This document shows, piece by piece, positions 15,981-61,487 of a DNA stretch of 64,000 nucleotides (position 1 is the first letter of the stretch; each line of letters starts with the position of its first letter). The position numbers were made by a program, and so were the translations under genes. The stretch spans positions 149,962 through 213,961 of the forward strand of contig OZ220722.1 in assembly GCA_965116815.1 (NCBI GenBank), written 5' to 3'. The notes beneath the pieces are model-generated. The model was not told the origin of the DNA, made no database searches, and was given only the letters and a program-made list of their open reading frames with translations. The stretch comes from Candidatus Poribacteria bacterium. GTDB taxonomy: Bacteria > Poribacteria > WGA-4E > WGA-3G.

Positions 15981-15991
15981 TAGAGAGGTTT

Positions 15992-16108
15992 CCCGGCAGC
16001 GACCTACTTTCCCGCGGGGTCGCCCCCGAAGTATCATCAGCGCTGAAGGGCTTAACTACCGTGTTCGGGATGGGTACGGGTGGGTCCCCTTCGCTATAGC
16101 CACCGGAA
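15992..16108 (-). rRNA. rrf: 5S ribosomal RNA
   Basis: Reverse complement reads CCGGTGGCTATAGCGAAGGGGACCCACCCGTACCCATCCCGAACACGGTAGTTAAGCCCTTCAGCGCTGATGATACTTCGGGGGCGACCCCGCGGGAAAGTAGGTCGCTGCCGGG. Confidence 0.9.
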
Positions 16109-16123
16109 AGGTGTATAAGAATA

Positions 16124-16140
16124 TTTGACAATTGTATAGA
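16124..16140 (-). promoter_or_regulatory. 3' half of the 23S processing stem
   Basis: TTTGACAATTGTATAGA is the perfect 17-nt complement of 19184-19200. The two halves bracket the 23S gene (RNase III-type stem). Confidence 0.7.
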
Positions 16141-16169
16141 ATGTGAGGAGTCGGTAGAAGAAAGGAAGT

Positions 16170-19156
<2,987 letters not shown>

Positions 19157-19183
19157 GTAATATCATTCTACCGATTTACCCTC

Positions 19184-19200
19184 TCTATACAATTGTCAAA
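19184..19200 (-). promoter_or_regulatory. 5' half of the 23S processing stem
   Basis: TCTATACAATTGTCAAA, complementary to 16124-16140. Confidence 0.7.
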
Positions 19201-19228
19201 GAACAATGCCTATTTGTTATATAGGCGA

Positions 19229-19301
19229 TGGAGATGAGCGGAATTGAACCGCTGACCTTCTGGTTGCAAACCAGATGCTCTCCCAACTGAGCTACACCCC
19301 C
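19229..19301 (-). tRNA. tRNA-Ala(UGC): tRNA-Ala (anticodon UGC), no encoded CCA
   Basis: GGGGGTGTAGCTCAGTTGGGAGAGCATCTGGTTTGCAACCAGAAGGTCAGCGGTTCAATTCCGCTCATCTCCA. Folds as a 7/4/5/5 cloverleaf with the G3:U70 Ala identity pair and anticodon loop TTTGCAA. Confidence 0.92.
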
Positions 19302-19317
19302 ATGTGGCATGCTCTTA

Positions 19318-19347
19318 AGTATACCACAATCACGATATGAATGTCAA
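19318..19347 (-). promoter_or_regulatory. rrn promoter copy 1 (proximal)
   Basis: Minus strand: AAAAATAAAT-TTGACA (19347-19342), 18 nt, TATACT (19323-19318), with TGTGG just upstream of the -10. Confidence 0.6.
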
Positions 19348-19365
19348 ATTTATTTTTCAAAAATC

Positions 19366-19432
19366 GACCAGGGAGGAATCGCACCTCGCCTTCGGCTTTT
19401 CAAACCGAAACTCCTAATTTGAGCAACTGGTC
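19366..19432 (-). ncRNA. Degenerate tRNA-like element (Phe-type GAA anticodon loop), 67 nt
   Basis: GACCAGTTGCTCAAATTAGGAGTTTCGGTTTGAAAAGCCGAAGGCGAGGTGCGATTCCTCCCTGGTC. 6-bp acceptor, 3-bp D stem, 5-bp anticodon stem with loop TTGAAAA, 4-bp T stem with loop TGCGATT (non-canonical). Confidence 0.35.
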
Positions 19433-51733: not shown

Positions 51734-52912
51734 CTAATCAATAAGTGATTGATAGGTGAGGACCCGGAATTGGGCATGAAATGACGAATCGCCAATCAAT
51801 TGCGTCATCAAGATGCCGATTAAATCTTCGACGGGATCAATCCAAAACGTCGTGCTTGCGAGTCCACCCCAACTGTAAGTCCCTAAGGAACCGAGCGTGT
51901 GCGTGTCAGCAACATCGGTAACGACAGCGAACCCAAGACCGAAACCGCACCCTGTCCTTTCAAGCGGTTGCCAATCGTCAGAGATATGGTTCATCCTGAT
52001 GAGTTCGACCGTTTTTCTGCCGAGGAGTCGGACACCATCAAGCTCTCCGTCATTCAGCAACATTTGGCAGAAACGGAGGTAATCGGCGGCAGTCGATTGT
52101 AAGCCTGCACCACCGGAGTGGAAAAAACTCAACGGTCCGCTTGAAACAGGCGCGTTCTCCATTACCTGAATGCCACCGCTTTCCGTGGGTTCATACAACG
52201 TCGCATATCGGTCAGCCTTGTCGTCCGGCACCGAGAAAGCAGTATCAACCATACCTAAAGGCTCACAAATTTGGGTTCTCAAGAATTCCGCAAACGGCAT
52301 TCCCGATACGACCTCCACAAGGTAGCCGAGCACATCGGTAGACATACCGTAATTCCACCCATCACCGGGGTGATGAAGGAGCGGGATATTTCCGAGCTCC
52401 TGCGCCATGTTCGCGAGGTCTCCACCGTAGAAATTCGCTTCTCTATACCGCTCATTAATCGGGTGCTCCCAGTCTCCTCCGTAGATAAGTCCAGCAGTGT
52501 GCGTGAGCAGATGCTTTACCGTCATCTCGCGTTCCGCATCAACGATAGCACCGCCATCCGCAGTATAAACCTGCATGTCCTTGAACGCAGGAATAATTTC
52601 GGCTATCGGTGCGCCGAGTTGAAAATGTCCTTCCTCATAGAGCATCATCACAGCAACGCTGGTAATCGGTTTCGTCATTGAGTAGATGCGGAAGATGGTA
52701 TCAAACGCTACCGGTTTCGCAGTAGCGATGTCCTGCGTCCCGAACTTCTCAAAATGGACGAGTCTACCCTCACGCGCGATCATCGTCAATGCACAGGGTA
52801 TTTTACCATAGTCAATCCAGCGTTGCATGACCGGAGCAATGCGTTCTAAACGCGAGGTTGACATCCCCACATCTTCAGGCACAGCCCGCGGTAATCCTTC
52901 ATATATTGCCAT
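51734..52912 (-). CDS. Serine hydrolase, beta-lactamase/transpeptidase-like family, no signal peptide (paralogue A1)
   Basis: SMTKPITS (SxxK nucleophile motif), HLLTHTAGL, YSWGGLASTTFWIDP. Very similar to 54381-55565. Confidence 0.75.
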   Translation of the reverse strand: MAIYEGLPRAVPEDVGMSTSRLERIAPVMQRWIDYGKIPCALTMIAREGRLVHFEKFGTQDIATAKPVAFDTIFRIYSMTKPITSVAVMMLYEEGHFQLGAPIAEIIPAFKDMQVYTADGGAIVDAEREMTVKHLLTHTAGLIYGGDWEHPINERYREANFYGGDLANMAQELGNIPLLHHPGDGWNYGMSTDVLGYLVEVVSGMPFAEFLRTQICEPLGMVDTAFSVPDDKADRYATLYEPTESGGIQVMENAPVSSGPLSFFHSGGAGLQSTAADYLRFCQMLLNDGELDGVRLLGRKTVELIRMNHISDDWQPLERTGCGFGLGFAVVTDVADTHTLGSLGTYSWGGLASTTFWIDPVEDLIGILMTQLIGDSSFHAQFRVLTYQSLID

Positions 52913-52928
52913 TAAAATCTCCTATAGA

Positions 52929-53135
52929 TTAGTTATCAGTTATCATATCATTTCTGATTGAAATTGTAGCATAAACTTTCAGTTTGGGTTTCCTTTGTAG
53001 CATAGACTGTTAGTCTGTGCCCTAAGGTGTGGTTAATGCGATATGAACTTTTAGACATGGTATCAGATGCAAGAAGTGTTTGATTCATCAAAAATCTCTT
53101 GTAACTGATAACCGATAACCGACAACTGATAACTA
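52929..53135. repeat. Family A element split by a 115-bp insertion
   Basis: Arms ATTAGTTATCAGTTATCA ... GATGCAAGAAGTGTTTGATTCATCAAAAATCTCTTGTAACTGATAACCGATAACCGACAACTGATAACTA. Insertion at 52946-53060 relative to the paralogous copy at 55751-55841. Confidence 0.65.
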
Positions 53136-54347
53136 TTACTCGGTTAGTGTCTGATAGACCAGCACCTTAAATTGTTGTTGGAAAGGGTAAGGGTTATTGA
53201 GAAGTTGTGTCAAGAGCAAGCCGACCAATTCCTCTTCAGGGTCAATCCAGAAAGTGGTAGCAGCGGCACCACCCCAACTGAAATTCCCGACCGATTCCAG
53301 AATATTCGGGGAATCCTTACCTGTCACAACAGCAAAACCGAGTCCAAACCAATCATCGTGATGCGGATAGCGCATCAATTCAACTGTCTTTTTGCCCAAT
53401 ATACGGACACCATCAAGTTCACCACCGTTGAGCAACATTTGAGAAAACCGCATGTAATCCGCAGCAGTCGAGACAAGTCCGCCACCGCCCGATGGGAAAA
53501 AACTGACCGCATCGTTTGCGAGGGGTGCATCTTCAACACGTCGTTTCTGTCCCTCTTCTCTGTTATGCCGGTACAGTGCTGCGTACCTCTCAACTTTCTC
53601 CGGTGGCACTGAAAACCCAGTGTCTACCATACCGAGGGGACCAAAGAGACGGGTTTGGAGGAATGCTTCAAACGGCATTCCGGACACCACTTCCACAAGG
53701 TAGCCGAGCACATCAACAGAAACACCATAGGTCCACCTTTCACCCGGTTCGTGAACGAGCGGAATGTTACCGAGTTTTCCCACCATATCCACCAAGGTTG
53801 AGTCGGGTTCAAAGATTTTCGCCTCCTTATAGCGTTCATCAACAGGTTTATTGCCCCAACCGTAGGTCAACCCGGCAGTATGCATAAGGAGGTGCTTAAT
53901 CGTTACCTCCTTCTTCGCATCCAAGATTTCACTCTGGTCCTCGTTGTAGACCTTCATGTCCTTAAATTCAGGGATAAATTTAGAAACGGGTGTGCCGAGT
54001 TGAAAATGTCCTTCCTCATAGAGTATCATCACAGCAACGCTGGTAATCGGTTTCGACATCGAGTAAATGCGGAATATCGTGTCTGGCTCAACAGGTTTGC
54101 TATTCTCAACATCTCGCATGCCGATGGTTTCAAAATGGACAATTTTCCCGCGTCGTGCCACAACCGTTAGGAATCCCGGCAGGTGCCCCTTATCAACGTA
54201 ATCTTGCATGACAGGACGGATGCGTTCAAGGCGCTCAGCAGAAACACCTACCTCCTCTGGCACCGCCATCGGTAGTCCCTGTCCCAAAGCGACGGTGGTA
54301 ACACCGAAAAGCAGTAAATATATGTAATAAGCCAATAATTTCCTCAA
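53136..54347 (-). CDS. Secreted serine hydrolase, beta-lactamase-like family (paralogue B1)
   Basis: Signal peptide MRKLLAYYIYLLLFGVTTVALGQG. SMSKPITS. HLLMHTAGL. FSWGGAAATTFWIDP. Confidence 0.75.
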   Translation of the reverse strand: MRKLLAYYIYLLLFGVTTVALGQGLPMAVPEEVGVSAERLERIRPVMQDYVDKGHLPGFLTVVARRGKIVHFETIGMRDVENSKPVEPDTIFRIYSMSKPITSVAVMILYEEGHFQLGTPVSKFIPEFKDMKVYNEDQSEILDAKKEVTIKHLLMHTAGLTYGWGNKPVDERYKEAKIFEPDSTLVDMVGKLGNIPLVHEPGERWTYGVSVDVLGYLVEVVSGMPFEAFLQTRLFGPLGMVDTGFSVPPEKVERYAALYRHNREEGQKRRVEDAPLANDAVSFFPSGGGGLVSTAADYMRFSQMLLNGGELDGVRILGKKTVELMRYPHHDDWFGLGFAVVTGKDSPNILESVGNFSWGGAAATTFWIDPEEELVGLLLTQLLNNPYPFQQQFKVLVYQTLTE

Positions 54348-54380: not shown

Positions 54381-55565
54381 TCAATCAACAATTGACTGAT
54401 AAGTTAGTACACGGAATTGGGCGTGGAATGGTGAATCCGCACCGACCAATTGGGTCATAAAAATACCGATCAACGCTTCCACAGGATCAATCCAAAATGT
54501 GGTACTTGCCATACCTCCCCAACCGCAAGTGCCTACGGAACCGAGCGTGTCTGTATCAGCGACATCTGTAACAACGGCGAACCCAAGTCCAAAACCGGAC
54601 CCAGTTCTCTGGTTAGGTTGCCAGTCGTTAGAAATATGGTCCATCGTGATGAGTTCGGCTGTTTTTCTGCCGAGCAACCGTACGCCATCGAGTTCACCAT
54701 CGTTGAGCACCATTTGGCAGAAGCGGAGATAATCCGCGGCGGTCGATTGTAGCCCTCCACCACCAGAGTGGAAAAAACTCAGCGGTCCAGTTGCAGCATG
54801 GACCTTTTCAATCGCTTGAAGCGCACCATCTTCCCCGAATTCATATACCTTTGAATACCGGTTAGCATCTTCAACCCGCACCGAAAAACCGGTATCCTTC
54901 ATGCCTAAAGGCTCAAAAATACGCGTTTTCAAAAACGTCTCAAACGGCATACCAGATACGACACCTACAAGGTAACCGAGTACATCGGTAGACATACCGT
55001 ACTTCCACGCGGTGCCGGGTTGGTGAATGAGCGGAATACTTCCGAGTTTTTGTATCATGTTCACGAGATCTCCGCCGTAGAGATCTGCGTCCTCATATCG
55101 CTGATCAATCGGATGATCCTCCCTATCGCTTTCATAGATAAGTCCAGCGGTATGCGTGAGTAAATGTTTTATGGTTATCTCGCGTTCCGCATCAACAATT
55201 GCACTGCCGTCTTCCGTGTAAACTTTCATGTCTTTGAAGTAAGGAACAAATTCGGAGACAGGCGTACTGAGTTGAAAATGCCCTTCTTCGTAGAGCATCA
55301 TCACAGCGACACTTGTAATCGGCTTCGTCATCGAGTAGAGGCGGAAAATAGTGTCGAATTCCACGGGTTTAGCGGCGGCGATATCCTGCATGCCAAACTT
55401 TTCAAAGTGGACCAGCCTACCGCCACGCGCGATCATCGTCAATGCACAAGGAATTTTTCCGTTGTCAACATACCCTTGCATAACCGGCGTAATACGCTCC
55501 AACCGCGAGGTTGACATGCCCATCTCTTCAGGCATTGCCCGCGGTAATCCTTCATATACTGCCAT
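54381..55565 (-). CDS. Serine hydrolase, beta-lactamase-like family, no signal peptide (paralogue A2)
   Basis: SMTKPITS. Collinear with A1 over the full length. Confidence 0.75.
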   Translation of the reverse strand: MAVYEGLPRAMPEEMGMSTSRLERITPVMQGYVDNGKIPCALTMIARGGRLVHFEKFGMQDIAAAKPVEFDTIFRLYSMTKPITSVAVMMLYEEGHFQLSTPVSEFVPYFKDMKVYTEDGSAIVDAEREITIKHLLTHTAGLIYESDREDHPIDQRYEDADLYGGDLVNMIQKLGSIPLIHQPGTAWKYGMSTDVLGYLVGVVSGMPFETFLKTRIFEPLGMKDTGFSVRVEDANRYSKVYEFGEDGALQAIEKVHAATGPLSFFHSGGGGLQSTAADYLRFCQMVLNDGELDGVRLLGRKTAELITMDHISNDWQPNQRTGSGFGLGFAVVTDVADTDTLGSVGTCGWGGMASTTFWIDPVEALIGIFMTQLVGADSPFHAQFRVLTYQSIVD

Positions 55566-55584
55566 TAATGTCTCCTATAGATTA

Positions 55585-55750
55585 ACCCAAGTTGCTACTT
55601 ACAAGTTTTGAAGGTTCAAGGAGATTTTTCACGCATTTTCCTCACCCCAGAGGGGTGATATTGCTTCGCAGTGAGAATAGAAAATGCGGTCTACAACTTC
55701 TTGCACTCCAGCGGAGTGCTATGTGCACAAATAGGTGACAACTTAGGTGA
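55585..55750. mobile_element. Family D MITE-like element, copy 1 (166 bp)
   Basis: Terminal IR ACCCAAGTTGCTAC / GTGACAACTTAGGT. Internal hairpins CACCCCAGAGGGGTG and GCACTCCAGCGGAGTGC. Flanked by direct TAGATTA (55578-55584 and 55751-55757). The paralogous site at 52924-52930 has a single TAGATTA. Confidence 0.75.
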
Positions 55751-55841
55751 TAGATTAGTTGTCAGTTATCAGCTGTAAGAAGTATTTGATTCATCAAAAA
55801 CCTCTTGTAACTGATAACTGATAACCGACAACTGACAACTA
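55751..55841. repeat. Family A palindromic element
   Basis: TAGATTAGTTGTCAGTTATCAGCTGTAAGAAG...CCTCTTGTAACTGATAACTGATAACCGACAACTGACAACTA. Confidence 0.7.
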
Positions 55842-57158
55842 TTATTCAGTCAGTGCCTGATAGGTCAGCACTTTAAATTGATCGTGGGAAGAGGACACGT
55901 CACTGATCTGCGTCATGAGCAAACCGATCAACTCCTTTTCAGGGTCAATCCAGAAGATGGTCCCAGCGGCACCACCCCAACTGTAACTTCCTATCGACTC
56001 CGGCGTGTCTTTTGGGTCTTTTTCATCGGTGTCTTTCGATTCTTTATCATTTACGACGGAAAAACCGAGTCCAAACCAACCGTTGTGATGCGGATACCGC
56101 ATTAATTCGACCGTTTTTTTATCCAATATACGGACACCATCAAGTTCACCACCGTTGAGCAACATCTGACAAAACCGCATATAGTCTGGAGCAGTGGAGA
56201 CGAGTCCGCCACCGCCCCCTGGAAAGAAACGGATCTCACCATTCGCGAGTTGTGGATCCTTATCAACACGTTCCAACATCATTTTTTGCTCTTTATGACC
56301 TTTGATATCCTTCTTCTCTATAGCACCGTTCTTCTTTTTTTCTTTGTCTTTATCGCCTTTCATCCCGCCTTCTTTGTTAAGTTCATAGAGTGCGGCAAAC
56401 CTGTCCAACTTCCCTACAGGTACTGAAAATGCAGTATCAACCATACCGAGCGGTTCAAAGAGCCGCGTTTGGAGGAATTCTTCAAACGGCATCCCCGAAA
56501 CCACCTCCACAAGGTAGCCGAGTAGGTCAGTAGATACACCATAGGTCCACGCTTCACCCGGTTCGTGGACTAACGGAACAGTGCTCAATTTTTGTGCCAT
56601 ATCCGCCAACGTTGTGCCGGGTTCAAAAATTTTCGCCTCCCGAAAGCGTTTATCGGCGGGTTCGCCGCCCCAGCCATAGATTAACCCTGAAGTATGCATG
56701 AGGAGATGTTTGATTGTTATCTCCTTCTTCGCATCCAAGATTTCAGTCTGGTCCTCGCTGTAGACCTTCATATCCTTAAATTCAGGGATGAAATCGGACA
56801 CAGGTGTGTCGAGTTGAAAATGTCCTTCTTCATAAAGCATCATCACTGCGACACTCGTAATCGGTTTCGACATCGAGTGGATACGGAAGATTGTGTCTGC
56901 TTCGATGGACTTGTTATTTTCAATATCTCCCATACCGATGGTTTCAAAATGAACAATTTTGCCGCGTCTCGCCACGACCGTCAGGAACCCCGCTATACGT
57001 CCATCATCGACATAACCTTGCATCACAGGACGGATGCGTTCAAGGCGTTCAGCAGAGACACCAACTTCCTCCGGCACTGCCATCGGGAGTCCTTGTCCAA
57101 AAGCGAGTGTAGTAACACAAAAAAGCAGTAAACATGTATATGCCAACAATTTCCTCAA
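55842..57158 (-). CDS. Secreted serine hydrolase, beta-lactamase-like family (paralogue B2, with K/D/E-rich insertions)
   Basis: Signal peptide. SMSKPITS. Two low-complexity insertions relative to B1 (GDKDKEKKKNGAIEKKDIKGHKEQK and KESKDTDEKDPKDT). Confidence 0.75.
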   Translation of the reverse strand: MRKLLAYTCLLLFCVTTLAFGQGLPMAVPEEVGVSAERLERIRPVMQGYVDDGRIAGFLTVVARRGKIVHFETIGMGDIENNKSIEADTIFRIHSMSKPITSVAVMMLYEEGHFQLDTPVSDFIPEFKDMKVYSEDQTEILDAKKEITIKHLLMHTSGLIYGWGGEPADKRFREAKIFEPGTTLADMAQKLSTVPLVHEPGEAWTYGVSTDLLGYLVEVVSGMPFEEFLQTRLFEPLGMVDTAFSVPVGKLDRFAALYELNKEGGMKGDKDKEKKKNGAIEKKDIKGHKEQKMMLERVDKDPQLANGEIRFFPGGGGGLVSTAPDYMRFCQMLLNGGELDGVRILDKKTVELMRYPHHNGWFGLGFSVVNDKESKDTDEKDPKDTPESIGSYSWGGAAGTIFWIDPEKELIGLLMTQISDVSSSHDQFKVLTYQALTE

Positions 57159-58244: not shown

Positions 58245-58376
58245 TTCGCATGTTCACTTGTAGGCGTGCGGTGGACGTGCGCGAACTACAAGCGAGATAC
58301 ATAAGGAGGTCTTCCTAAATAGTTAATTATCTATGTTTTTCTTGTTTTTTCTATGTTTTTGTGGTATGCTTATAGT

Positions 58377-58982
58377 ATGAAACACTATAAAACACCACGA
58401 GAAACATCGGAGATTCTCGGTATTTCTATAGATAGACTCCGACGGTTAGCAGAGAACGGCACAATCTCTACTATCCGAACGCCGGGTGGACAAAGGCGTT
58501 ATGATGTGCAGGGGTATCTTGATGCGCAAACCGAAACAGAGATTACTACCATTGGGTATTGTAGAGTCAGCAGTAGCGGGCAAAAAGAAGACCTCACGTC
58601 CCAAGTCGCGTATGTCCAAAGCCACTATCCTGAAGCAGAGATTATTCGAGACTTTGGAAGTGGTATCAACTTCAAAAGAAAAGGACTTCTCTCCTTACTG
58701 GAACGCATCTTGCGAGGTGATAAACTCCACATTGTTGTTGCCCATCGGGATCGACTCGCCCGATTCGGCGGAGAAGTCATACAATTCTTGGTCGAACAAA
58801 ACGGTGGAGAAGTCGTGGTTCTCGACGAGACTGTTTACAGCCCCGAGGAAGAACTTACTGCCGATCTCCTCGCAATTCTGCATGTCTTTTCCTGTAGAAT
58901 GTATGGACTCCGGCGATACCGTGACCAAATCAAAGAAGATCGAAATCTTTCCCACAGTGGAACAGAAAGCGATACTCCGTAG
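58377..58982 (+). CDS. tnpA: IS607-type serine recombinase transposase TnpA
   Basis: MerR-like HTH (TPRETSEILGISIDRLRRLAENGTISTIRTPGGQRRY) followed by the resolvase catalytic motif IGYCRVSSSGQKEDL. Confidence 0.85.
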   Translation: MKHYKTPRETSEILGISIDRLRRLAENGTISTIRTPGGQRRYDVQGYLDAQTETEITTIGYCRVSSSGQKEDLTSQVAYVQSHYPEAEIIRDFGSGINFKRKGLLSLLERILRGDKLHIVVAHRDRLARFGGEVIQFLVEQNGGEVVVLDETVYSPEEELTADLLAILHVFSCRMYGLRRYRDQIKEDRNLSHSGTESDTP

Positions 58983-60072
58983 ATGGTTTGGCACGTCTCG
59001 ATATACGTATAATGCGTCGGTATCTGCTCTACAAGAGCAAGGAAACCCACCGAAGAACTTCAAAGGACTTGTTTCCATTGTGCTTGACCGCCTTCCCGAA
59101 TGGCATGTAGACACACCGCGCCAAATCAAGGCAGGCGCGGTTATGGATGCGTGTCAAGCGGTTCGCAATGCCAAAATAAAGGCAAAAGCGACAGGTGAGC
59201 GTCAAAACGTCAAGTTTCGGTCCAGAAAGAATCGTAGACAGACACTTTATCTGCGTGCCGACTCCCTGAAAAACAATGGTTTTTATGTTCGTTTTTTAGG
59301 TGATATGAAGATGTCAGAGCCTTTGCCTGCTAAACCACAAGGGACAGGTAAGAAATCAGAACGTGATACGAATGCGGAGGTCAAGGATTCTCAATTGATA
59401 CTGGAAAATGGCAGATATTTTCTCTGTGTTTCTTATGTTGAGAAGAAAAAGACGCGAGAACCAAGCGGTAGAATAGTAGCACTTGACCCCGGTGTTCGTG
59501 ATTTTATGACGTTTTTCTCTGAAGAGAGTTTCGGTTGGTTAGGACAGCAGTGTATCAACCGTATTCAAAGATTGTGTCAACACTGCGATAACCTCCTATC
59601 ACGCGCAACGCAAGAGAAACGCCCGCTACGGCGTGCTTTGCGGAAAGCCGCGAATAGAATAAAGGTAAAAATCCGTAATCTCATTGATGAACTTCACAAA
59701 AAGGTTGCACACTTCCTCGTAACAAACTTTGACATCATTTTGCTTCCAACCTTTGAGACGAAACAGATGACGAAACGAGGCGCGCGGAAGTTGCGAAAGA
59801 AGTCCGTTCGACAGATGCTAACACTCTCACACTATAGATTCAAAATATTTCTGAAACACAAGGCTTTGGAATATGGTGTGCGAGTTGTTGATGTCTGTGA
59901 AGTTTATACTTCTAAAACGGTGTCTTGGACAGGTGAAATCGTCGCGAACCTCGGCGGCTCTAAAGTTATCAAGTCATCGGAAGGTCATCGTATGGATAGG
60001 GATTTGAACGGCGCACGTGGGATATTCATCAAGAATGTCGCAGGTGCTTTGACGGTTCGTCCATCTACTTAG
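58903..60072 (+). CDS. tnpB: TnpB (OrfB) RuvC-like nuclease, zinc-finger cysteines absent
   Basis: Start at MDSGDTV (alternative at 58882). KIEIFPTVEQKAILRRWFG. RuvC-I ALDPGVRD. RuvC-II LPTFETKQM. RuvC-III MDRDLNGARGI. The segment between YTSKT and DRD reads VSWTGEIVANLGGSKVIKSSEGHRM with no Cys. Confidence 0.8.
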   Translation: MDSGDTVTKSKKIEIFPTVEQKAILRRWFGTSRYTYNASVSALQEQGNPPKNFKGLVSIVLDRLPEWHVDTPRQIKAGAVMDACQAVRNAKIKAKATGERQNVKFRSRKNRRQTLYLRADSLKNNGFYVRFLGDMKMSEPLPAKPQGTGKKSERDTNAEVKDSQLILENGRYFLCVSYVEKKKTREPSGRIVALDPGVRDFMTFFSEESFGWLGQQCINRIQRLCQHCDNLLSRATQEKRPLRRALRKAANRIKVKIRNLIDELHKKVAHFLVTNFDIILLPTFETKQMTKRGARKLRKKSVRQMLTLSHYRFKIFLKHKALEYGVRVVDVCEVYTSKTVSWTGEIVANLGGSKVIKSSEGHRMDRDLNGARGIFIKNVAGALTVRPST

Positions 60073-61311: not shown

Positions 61312-61323
61312 GTGCTAATTTAA

Positions 61324-61475
61324 CCCAAGTTGCTACTAACAGGTTTGGCACATTTTAGAAAGGGTCTTGGTCTTTTTCCCCACCCCGTAGGGGTGATATA
61401 TCTATAGAAAATGGCGTATTTACGCGATTGCACTCCAGCGGAGTGCTATATCCTATAATAAGTAGCAACTTGCGT
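61324..61475. mobile_element. Family D MITE-like element, copy 2 (152 bp)
   Basis: Terminal IR CCCAAGTTGCTACT / AGTAGCAACTTGCG. Hairpins CACCCCGTAGGGGTG and GCACTCCAGCGGAGTGC. Flanked by direct TAATTTAA (61316-61323 and 61476-61483). Confidence 0.75.
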
Positions 61476-61487
61476 TAATTTAATGAA

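Follow-up and report, generated by a model that had tools for sequence, protein, structure and literature searches.

We analysed a stretch of 64,000 nucleotides of Candidatus Poribacteria DNA, referred to here as the window, which is also recovered in sponge metagenomes and sponge genome projects. Between 51734 and 57158 it carries four tandem PF00144 genes, all on the reverse strand (51734-52912, 53136-54347, 54381-55565 and 55842-57158), in an A-B-A'-B' order with paralogs sharing approximately 76-80% DNA identity (repeat families D1-D5). The spacer separating two of these four beta-lactamase-family genes is occupied by a short repetitive element (copy 1), and a related sequence (copy 2) has the stop codon of a GFO/IDH/MocA oxidoreductase gene on one side and a short-chain dehydrogenase gene on the other. 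Copy 1 is situated 13 nt upstream of the ATG of the serine hydrolase gene at 54381-55565 (reverse strand; Pfam PF00144, E 1e-65), just past the GGAG ribosome-binding site, and lies between that site and whatever promoter serves the gene. Its proximity to the start codon makes it usable for asking whether such insertions alter expression. The protein of the gene neighbouring the element has no exact match on record. Between the two copies lies an IS607-family element (58353-60072, forward strand) that encodes a TnpA serine recombinase (58353-58982; NF033518, 176 bits) followed by an ORF for a TnpB-like RNA-guided nuclease ending at 60072 (NF040570, 115 bits); with a read depth three to four times that of its flanks in runs X1 and X2, this element is multi-copy. 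Elsewhere in the window, the reverse strand of 15991-19432 holds 23S and 5S rRNA genes and two tRNA genes, with no 16S rRNA gene anywhere in the 64 kb. Poribacteria have been reported to carry their 16S and 23S genes unlinked.

An earlier note on this DNA had described two MITE copies with terminal inverted repeats, two internal hairpins and flanking direct repeats, and all of these features are present as stated. Some of the boundaries moved when they were set by comparison across the family. Copy 1 spans 55585-55748 on the forward strand (164 bp; nhmmer E 4.7e-38, full model), so that the proposed start stands while the proposed end at 55750, and with it the length of 166 bp, does not. Its left terminal inverted repeat (55585-55598, ACCCAAGTTGCTAC) has the same sequence as the ends of IS982-family elements, and the right one (55735-55748, GTGACAACTTAGGT) is complementary to the left at 11 of 14 bases. 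Two hairpins, each defined by folding and covariation, occupy the interior of the forward strand: hairpin 1 (55643-55657, CACCCC-AGA-GGGGTG) and hairpin 2 (55703-55719, GCACTCC-AGC-GGAGTGC), which correspond to REP-like units 1 and 2 discussed below. The junctions read ...CCTATAGATTA / ACCCAAGTTGCTAC...GTGACAACTTAGGT / GA / TAGATTAGTTG. The heptamer TAGATTA was correctly reported on both sides, at 55578-55584 and 55751-55757, and the duplication can be read either as 9 bp with one mismatch (TATAGATTA at 55576-55584 and GATAGATTA at 55749-55757) or as the 7-bp TAGATTA plus two extra bases (GA).

Copy 2 spans 61323-61475 on the forward strand (153 bp, a short variant; nhmmer E 6.3e-41), with inverted repeats at 61323-61336 and 61462-61475, hairpins at 61381-61395 and 61430-61446, and junctions of the form ...GCTAATTTA / ACCCAAGTTGCTAC...GTAGCAACTTGCGT / TAATTTAATG. 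The end assigned to it previously was right; the start (61324), length (152 bp) and 8-bp duplication were each off by one base, since the eighth ‘A’ is the first base of the element and the duplication is a 7-bp TAATTTA, found at 61316-61322 and 61476-61482. Both copies carry the hairpin pair CACCCC-NNN-GGGGTG and GCACTCC-AGC-GGAGTGC. Copy 1 is a long variant with an extra segment at 55661-55683 (TTGCTTCGCAGTGAGAATAGAAA), a form that recurs at three other loci (L018, L019 and L022) and in copies at L075 that lack the inverted repeats. The two window copies share 66% identity and fall into different subfamilies. A family HMM (described below) matched the window exactly twice, with E-values of 6e-41 for copy 2 and 5e-38 for copy 1, and exact occurrences of the 13-mer CCCAAGTTGCTAC within the 64-kb window are confined to the two left ends.

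The sister spacer in the gene array had been put forward as an empty site for copy 1, and it proved to be one: 52921-52939 reads CCTATAGATTAGTTATCAG, with a single TAGATTA, a lone TATAGATTA (52923-52931) and no element. The predicted presence/absence polymorphism was also borne out. Contigs of related strains from other sponge samples, whose flanking genes are 97-98% identical to those of the window, have much shorter spans after 55579: 70 nt in run X5 and 101 nt in run X10, against 245 and 259 nt for the corresponding window spans from 55579 to 55825 and 55839. Beyond 55579 these contigs continue as ATGTGGCTATCAG... (ATGTGGCTATCAGCCATCAGTTATCAG...), in heptamer repeats with the MITE absent. 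A contig from run X6, on the other hand, crosses the left junction of copy 1 with the element present, so the insertion is polymorphic among close relatives. The element-less allele and the window diverge at base 55580 and beyond, so this allele is not a base-perfect empty site; the paralogous spacer is the cleaner one. The empty paralogous site fits the original claim of transposition after the segmental duplication, and the copy-1 insertion is much more recent than the duplication of the genes, which now share approximately 78% identity. For copy 2, no clean empty site could be read, as related strains differ across the whole spacer.

Other small repeats populate the same spacers. Tandem heptamers (GTTATCA / GTTGTCA and their complement), which resemble cyanobacterial STRR repeats, are found at many gene ends (55758-55841, 53087-53137 and others; repeat families D7 and D10), and their unit number at the copy-1 spacer varies between related strains. 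The sister ‘empty’ spacer has its own insert of approximately 118 bp (52943-53068), absent from the MITE spacer. Its two hairpin units, TTGTAGCATAAACTTTCAGTTTGGG and TTGTAGCATAGACTGTTAGTCTGTGCC, each bear a GTAG tag, and TATCA lies on the flanks. Units of this GTAG-tagged type are present at 10 or more Poribacterial loci, and the read-depth bin is approximately 16 times deeper than its flanks; they represent a second small repeat family that is distinct from the MITE.

To place the two copies in a wider context, one genome per species was scanned with a pattern containing the two hairpins but not the element ends. The scan returned at least 110 loci. All but two of those listed come from Candidatus or uncultured Poribacteria or from MAGs labelled ‘uncultured bacterium’, the remaining two being from a Blastocatellia MAG. 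These loci share the ends AACCCAAGTTGCTACTAAC...GGTGGCAACTTGGGTTA, even though the ends formed no part of the search pattern. A 152-position HMM trained on 43 seeds yielded at least 154 matches in the listed loci, 79 of them full length, with copy lengths of 144-193 bp and a mode of 151-153 bp. No gene was found inside the copies, in line with the original reading of the element as a MITE. With element boundaries set symmetrically (A-CCCAAG...GGGT), the terminal inverted repeats ACCCAAGTTGCTAC / GTGGCAACTTGGGT are conserved in 78 copies.

The earlier note had proposed tabulating the duplications across the family, and had allowed that the two seen in the window might be chance matches in A/T-rich flanks if other copies lacked them. 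The outcome was the opposite. An exact direct repeat abuts the element in 56 of 78 full-length copies, and a repeat with one mismatch in 11 more (72-86% of copies), compared with 4% exact repeats in a control that paired left and right flanks from different copies; chance is thereby excluded at the family level. Duplications of 7 bp predominate (33 copies), followed by 8 bp (16 copies), 9 bp (three copies), 5-6 bp (three copies) and 10 bp (one copy). They are 93% A+T, begin with TA in 50 of 56 cases and end with TA in 51, conforming to TA-N3-TA and TA-N4-TA. The copies are strongly biased towards intergenic DNA, with one of 79 falling within an open frame of 150 codons or more, where 74% of random windows do so. 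Reads cover the element 5-15 times as deeply as its flanks. Copies within the genome OY764073.1 average 95% identity and reach 99%, compared with a pairwise mean of 73% family-wide and the 66% seen for the window pair, a distribution that points to lineage-specific bursts superimposed on old subfamilies. Taken as a whole, the family shows features by which bacterial MITEs are recognized: short length, no coding capacity, inverted repeats, target duplications and many dispersed, polymorphic copies.

Some of these properties could also be expected of a structured non-coding RNA gene or cis-regulatory RNA that is retained for its function rather than being mobile. Both strands of both window copies fold better than 200 of 200 shuffled sequences (z −3.2 to −4.7), and base pairing in the stems of the hairpins is kept in at least 99% of approximately 145 copies, with changes occurring on both sides and hardly ever on one (pair 61/69, for example, is C-G in 127 copies, T-A in 16 and G-C in three). 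Metatranscriptome contigs cover the element, although RNA reads from a repeat cannot be traced to one particular locus. That the two strands fold equally well speaks against a dedicated transcript, as do the absence of any Rfam family at the gathering score or at E ≤ 1 and of any consensus-like site in a simple promoter scan of both copies. The terminator scan gave a single hit, hairpin 1 of copy 1 (55642-55658, forward strand), which lay within the shuffle background. Together with the duplications, the inverted repeats, the many copies per genome and the presence or absence of the element between strains, all of which indicate mobility, these observations make an RNA gene a highly improbable explanation.

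The ends of the element identify the kind of mobile DNA involved. Elements of the IS982 family are approximately 1 kb long, have ends starting 5'-AC with a conserved AC(N)6T(N)5TT, and generate direct repeats of variable length, from 2 to 10 bp (PMC7335449). The MITE end ACCCAAGTTGCTACTA fits this consensus with AC at positions 1-2 and T at position 9, departing from it with TA rather than TT at positions 15-16, and the MITE duplications of 5-10 bp, mostly 7 or 8, fall inside the published range. For comparison, Lactococcus IS982 has the ends ACCCGAATTGCTAGTT, and ISEfm1 has the ends ACCCGTGGTGCTAGTTAA and an 8-bp duplication, TAAAATTA. An IS982-family element on the Nostoc punctiforme plasmid pNPUN02 (WP_012413301.1) begins ACCCAAGTTGCTAGTTACAGATT: 20 of the 23 bases of the MITE left end ACCCAAGTTGCTACTAACAGGTT are identical to its left end. 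A metagenome scan for the 16-nt end with a DSFP-coding motif approximately 400 nt inward gave one match, a 925-bp element with the ends ACCCAAGTTGCTACT / ACTCAAGTTGCTACT and a 273-aa transposase. Further elements found solely by similarity to this protein (L121-125, L127, L128 and L131) all have ACCCAAGTTGC(T/C)ACC at both ends; these protein-found IS982-family elements measure 928-995 bp (approx. 0.95 kb), and several end with ACCCAAGTTGCYAC. The MITE end matches those of L121-L124, L127 and L128 at 14-15 of 15 positions. Transposases of the comparison elements score 160-172 bits on NCBIfam NF033520, an equivalog model with a cut-off of 130. The earlier note had hinted that 7-8-bp duplications would narrow the IS family; the ends and the transposase models together assign it to IS982.

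Elements with ACCCAAGTTGC ends (pNPUN02 and L120-L132) thus resemble the MITE in their terminal 14-16 nt, which are identical and start 5'-AC, and in their A/T-rich, TA-bounded duplications of variable length. They differ from it in being autonomous, with a length of 0.93-1.06 kb and a DDE transposase of 273-276 aa, and in the length of their duplications, which for L121-type elements is 5-7 bp (e.g. TAGTA, TACTTA, TACTA and ATAATTA). Their hosts are cyanobacteria and unidentified bacteria, none of them Poribacterial; one transposase cluster is labelled both Promineifilaceae (Chloroflexota) and Lentimicrobium (Bacteroidota). The flanks of the IS982-type elements with MITE-like ends are 52-58% G+C and contain no MITE copies.

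We conclude that both window sequences very probably represent a non-autonomous MITE of approximately 152 bp that is derived from, or parasitic on, IS982-family insertion sequences. Judging from the sequence of its ends, the MITE would be mobilized by an IS982-family DDE transposase, acting in trans and recognizing the 13-18-bp inverted repeats (ACCCAAGTTGCTAC...). Insertion would take place at A/T-rich intergenic TA-N3/4-TA sites, with repair of the staggered cut leaving a 7- or 8-bp duplication. The transposition pathway of IS982 has been termed uncharted by the family's reviewers (PMC7335449). A precedent for an IS982-derived MITE is MITECca01, described alongside ISCca4 in the Cardinium endosymbiont of Oedothorax gibbosus (PMC9769881). 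Like the Poribacterial MITE, MITECca01 is short, gene-less and multi-copy, has IS982-type inverted repeats, resides in a bacterium that lives with a host and is presumed to be driven in trans by an IS982-family transposase (PMC9769881). It is longer, at approximately 240 bp against approximately 152 bp, and belongs to a different phylum; its parental IS is known from the same genome, unlike that of the Poribacterial MITE, and neither a REP-like hairpin cargo nor a link to a Y1 transposase has been reported for it. No MITE or REP description for Poribacteria was found in the searchable literature; this large family is apparently undescribed, while being of an IS982-derived kind that is already known.

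The identity of the mobilizing enzyme is less clear than its family. The absence of an autonomous partner from the window, noted previously, was upheld by searches with the ends and with the family HMM. A wider search for a longer element with the same ends, which had been recommended alongside, found no IS982-family element with ACCCAAGTTGC ends in the approximately 0.9 Mb of Poribacterial DNA (110 loci) or the window. It looked for solo inverted repeats and for inverted pairs with a spacing of 250-4000 bp, grouped repeated ORFs into clusters, and used IS982 transposases as tblastn queries; the only output from the Poribacterial loci and the window consisted of variants, neighbours and one locus (L070) with different ends. 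When the Nostoc-type and L120-type transposases were used as protein queries, none of the best 120 matches to each carried a Poribacteria label, and an L120-type element at 80% identity or above was absent from the contigs of four runs that contain the window.

The L070 element is the only IS982-family element in the Poribacterial DNA searched. It is 1021 bp long, has ends of the ACGTGAGTT type, ACGTGAGTTTGA (L070:652-1750 and L143-L151), and is present in many near-identical copies per assembly. At L070 its right end is apparently duplicated, giving spans of 1021 and 1076 bp. It would be a candidate for the mobilizer, acting across subgroups with no ACCCAAGTTGC-ended cognate present, and its duplications share the signature of those of the MITE: 7 bp in three copies, 8 bp in five, and 6 and 9 bp in one each, A/T-rich and mostly TA...TA. 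By comparison, the elements of other phyla whose ends are identical to those of the MITE make duplications of 5-7 bp rather than 7-8 bp, a discrepancy that counts against the IS982 model. The resident ends, however, share just AC and AGTT with the MITE inverted repeat, approximately 7-8 of 17 positions as read by eye, and transposases are normally specific for their own repeats. Moreover, the approximately 0.9 Mb sampled comes from several genomes of 5-6 Mb each, so a low-copy cognate could easily be missed. We therefore regard the resident transposase as a rather doubtful mobilizer. With IS982-type ends on the MITE, and resident ends that differ while the duplications match, the family assignment is firm. 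The acting enzyme may come from an unsampled low-copy IS982-family element that ends in ACCCAAGTTGC, from the resident ACGTGAGTT-type element working outside its own subgroup, or from a partner since lost.

The interior of the MITE is not remnant IS sequence but a pair of REP-like hairpin units. Many HMM matches span positions 50-135 alone, without the ends, and such hairpin doublets lacking inverted repeats occur in many loci, often clustered. Each unit has a 6-7-bp stem and a 3-nt loop followed by (A/C)TATGTCTATAGAAA, with stems that vary (CACCCC, CACGCC, TTGCTCC, GCACTCC, CGCTCC and others). Four of the 110 loci listed also contain a gene for a 159-aa Y1_Tnp protein (Pfam E 3e-28); for a single-copy gene, chance alone predicts approximately 0.16 Y1-containing loci. 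At each of the four, the gene has MITE copies or core units within 20-110 bp on its flanks, and at three of them these flanking copies are inverted. The protein passes the IS200 model NF033573 (75.3 bits, cut-off 55) and fails the REP-associated tyrosine transposase model NF047646 (28.5 bits, cut-off 80). An arrangement of MITE(+), Y1 gene and MITE(−), approximately 800 bp in all, is found at L056:5741-6532 and L094:1464-2258 (reverse strand). The loci belong to different Poribacterial species, and their two units are 92.6% identical over 798 bp, with unrelated DNA outside; the unit may itself be mobile, for instance as a MITE-bounded composite.

This arrangement raises the question of whether the whole 152-bp unit could be REPIN-like and moved by the Y1 (HUH) enzyme through single-stranded hairpin intermediates, rather than by a DDE transposase. 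A gene bracketed by copies or core units, inverted in three of four cases, is a hallmark of RAYT/REPIN systems, and both the compensatory changes that maintain the hairpins and the spread of doublets without inverted repeats are in keeping with such a mode of transposition. HUH/Y1 transposition as known for the IS200/IS605 family, however, leaves the target unduplicated and does not depend on terminal inverted repeats, and Y1 enzymes therefore do not explain the observed insertions, 72% of which have exact 5-10-bp duplications abutting IS982-type inverted repeats. REP and REPIN-RAYT systems share with the MITE the short G+C-rich intergenic hairpins and a Y1 (HUH) gene flanked by inverted copies, but REPINs lack the DDE-type inverted repeats and target duplications that the MITE possesses (PMC3116915, PMC3337134). 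A REPIN is made of two inverted REPs that form one long hairpin, whereas the two hairpins of the MITE differ in sequence, share the same orientation and each run into a TATGT... tail, and the MITE-linked Y1 protein scores as IS200-type rather than with the RAYT clade, falling well below the cut-off of the RAYT model (28 against 80 bits). On balance, movement of the entire unit by Y1 is improbable.

Since the hairpin units exist on their own and flank an IS200-like Y1 gene, the MITE looks instead like IS982 ends placed around a REP doublet. The element could conceivably be a chimera of two systems, in which the IS982-type ends provide a DDE ‘vehicle’ and the hairpins are still acted on by the Y1 enzyme whose gene is bracketed by inverted copies; we put this forward tentatively, as a possibility that falls short of being the likely case. 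If true, two unrelated transposases would recognize one short sequence, so that DDE and HUH systems would overlap in an unusual way, and a MITE-bounded composite could carry the Y1 gene along as cargo.

Setting the mechanism aside, the element is an ordinary kind of mobile DNA, and the unusual detail is its interior cargo. It provides a well-supported mobile DNA family for Poribacteria, an uncultivated phylum of sponge symbionts, with a clear target rule (TA-N3/4-TA with a 7-8-bp duplication), and its strain-polymorphic insertions offer ready strain markers for sponge metagenomes. A related hairpin was observed in the Blastocatellia MAG (nzgw74), where L049:1669-1900 is a tandem array of 46-47-nt units with the hairpin GCACTCCAGCGGAGTGC and AATGTTTATATAC..., reflecting either a binning error or the occurrence of the hairpin unit beyond Poribacteria.
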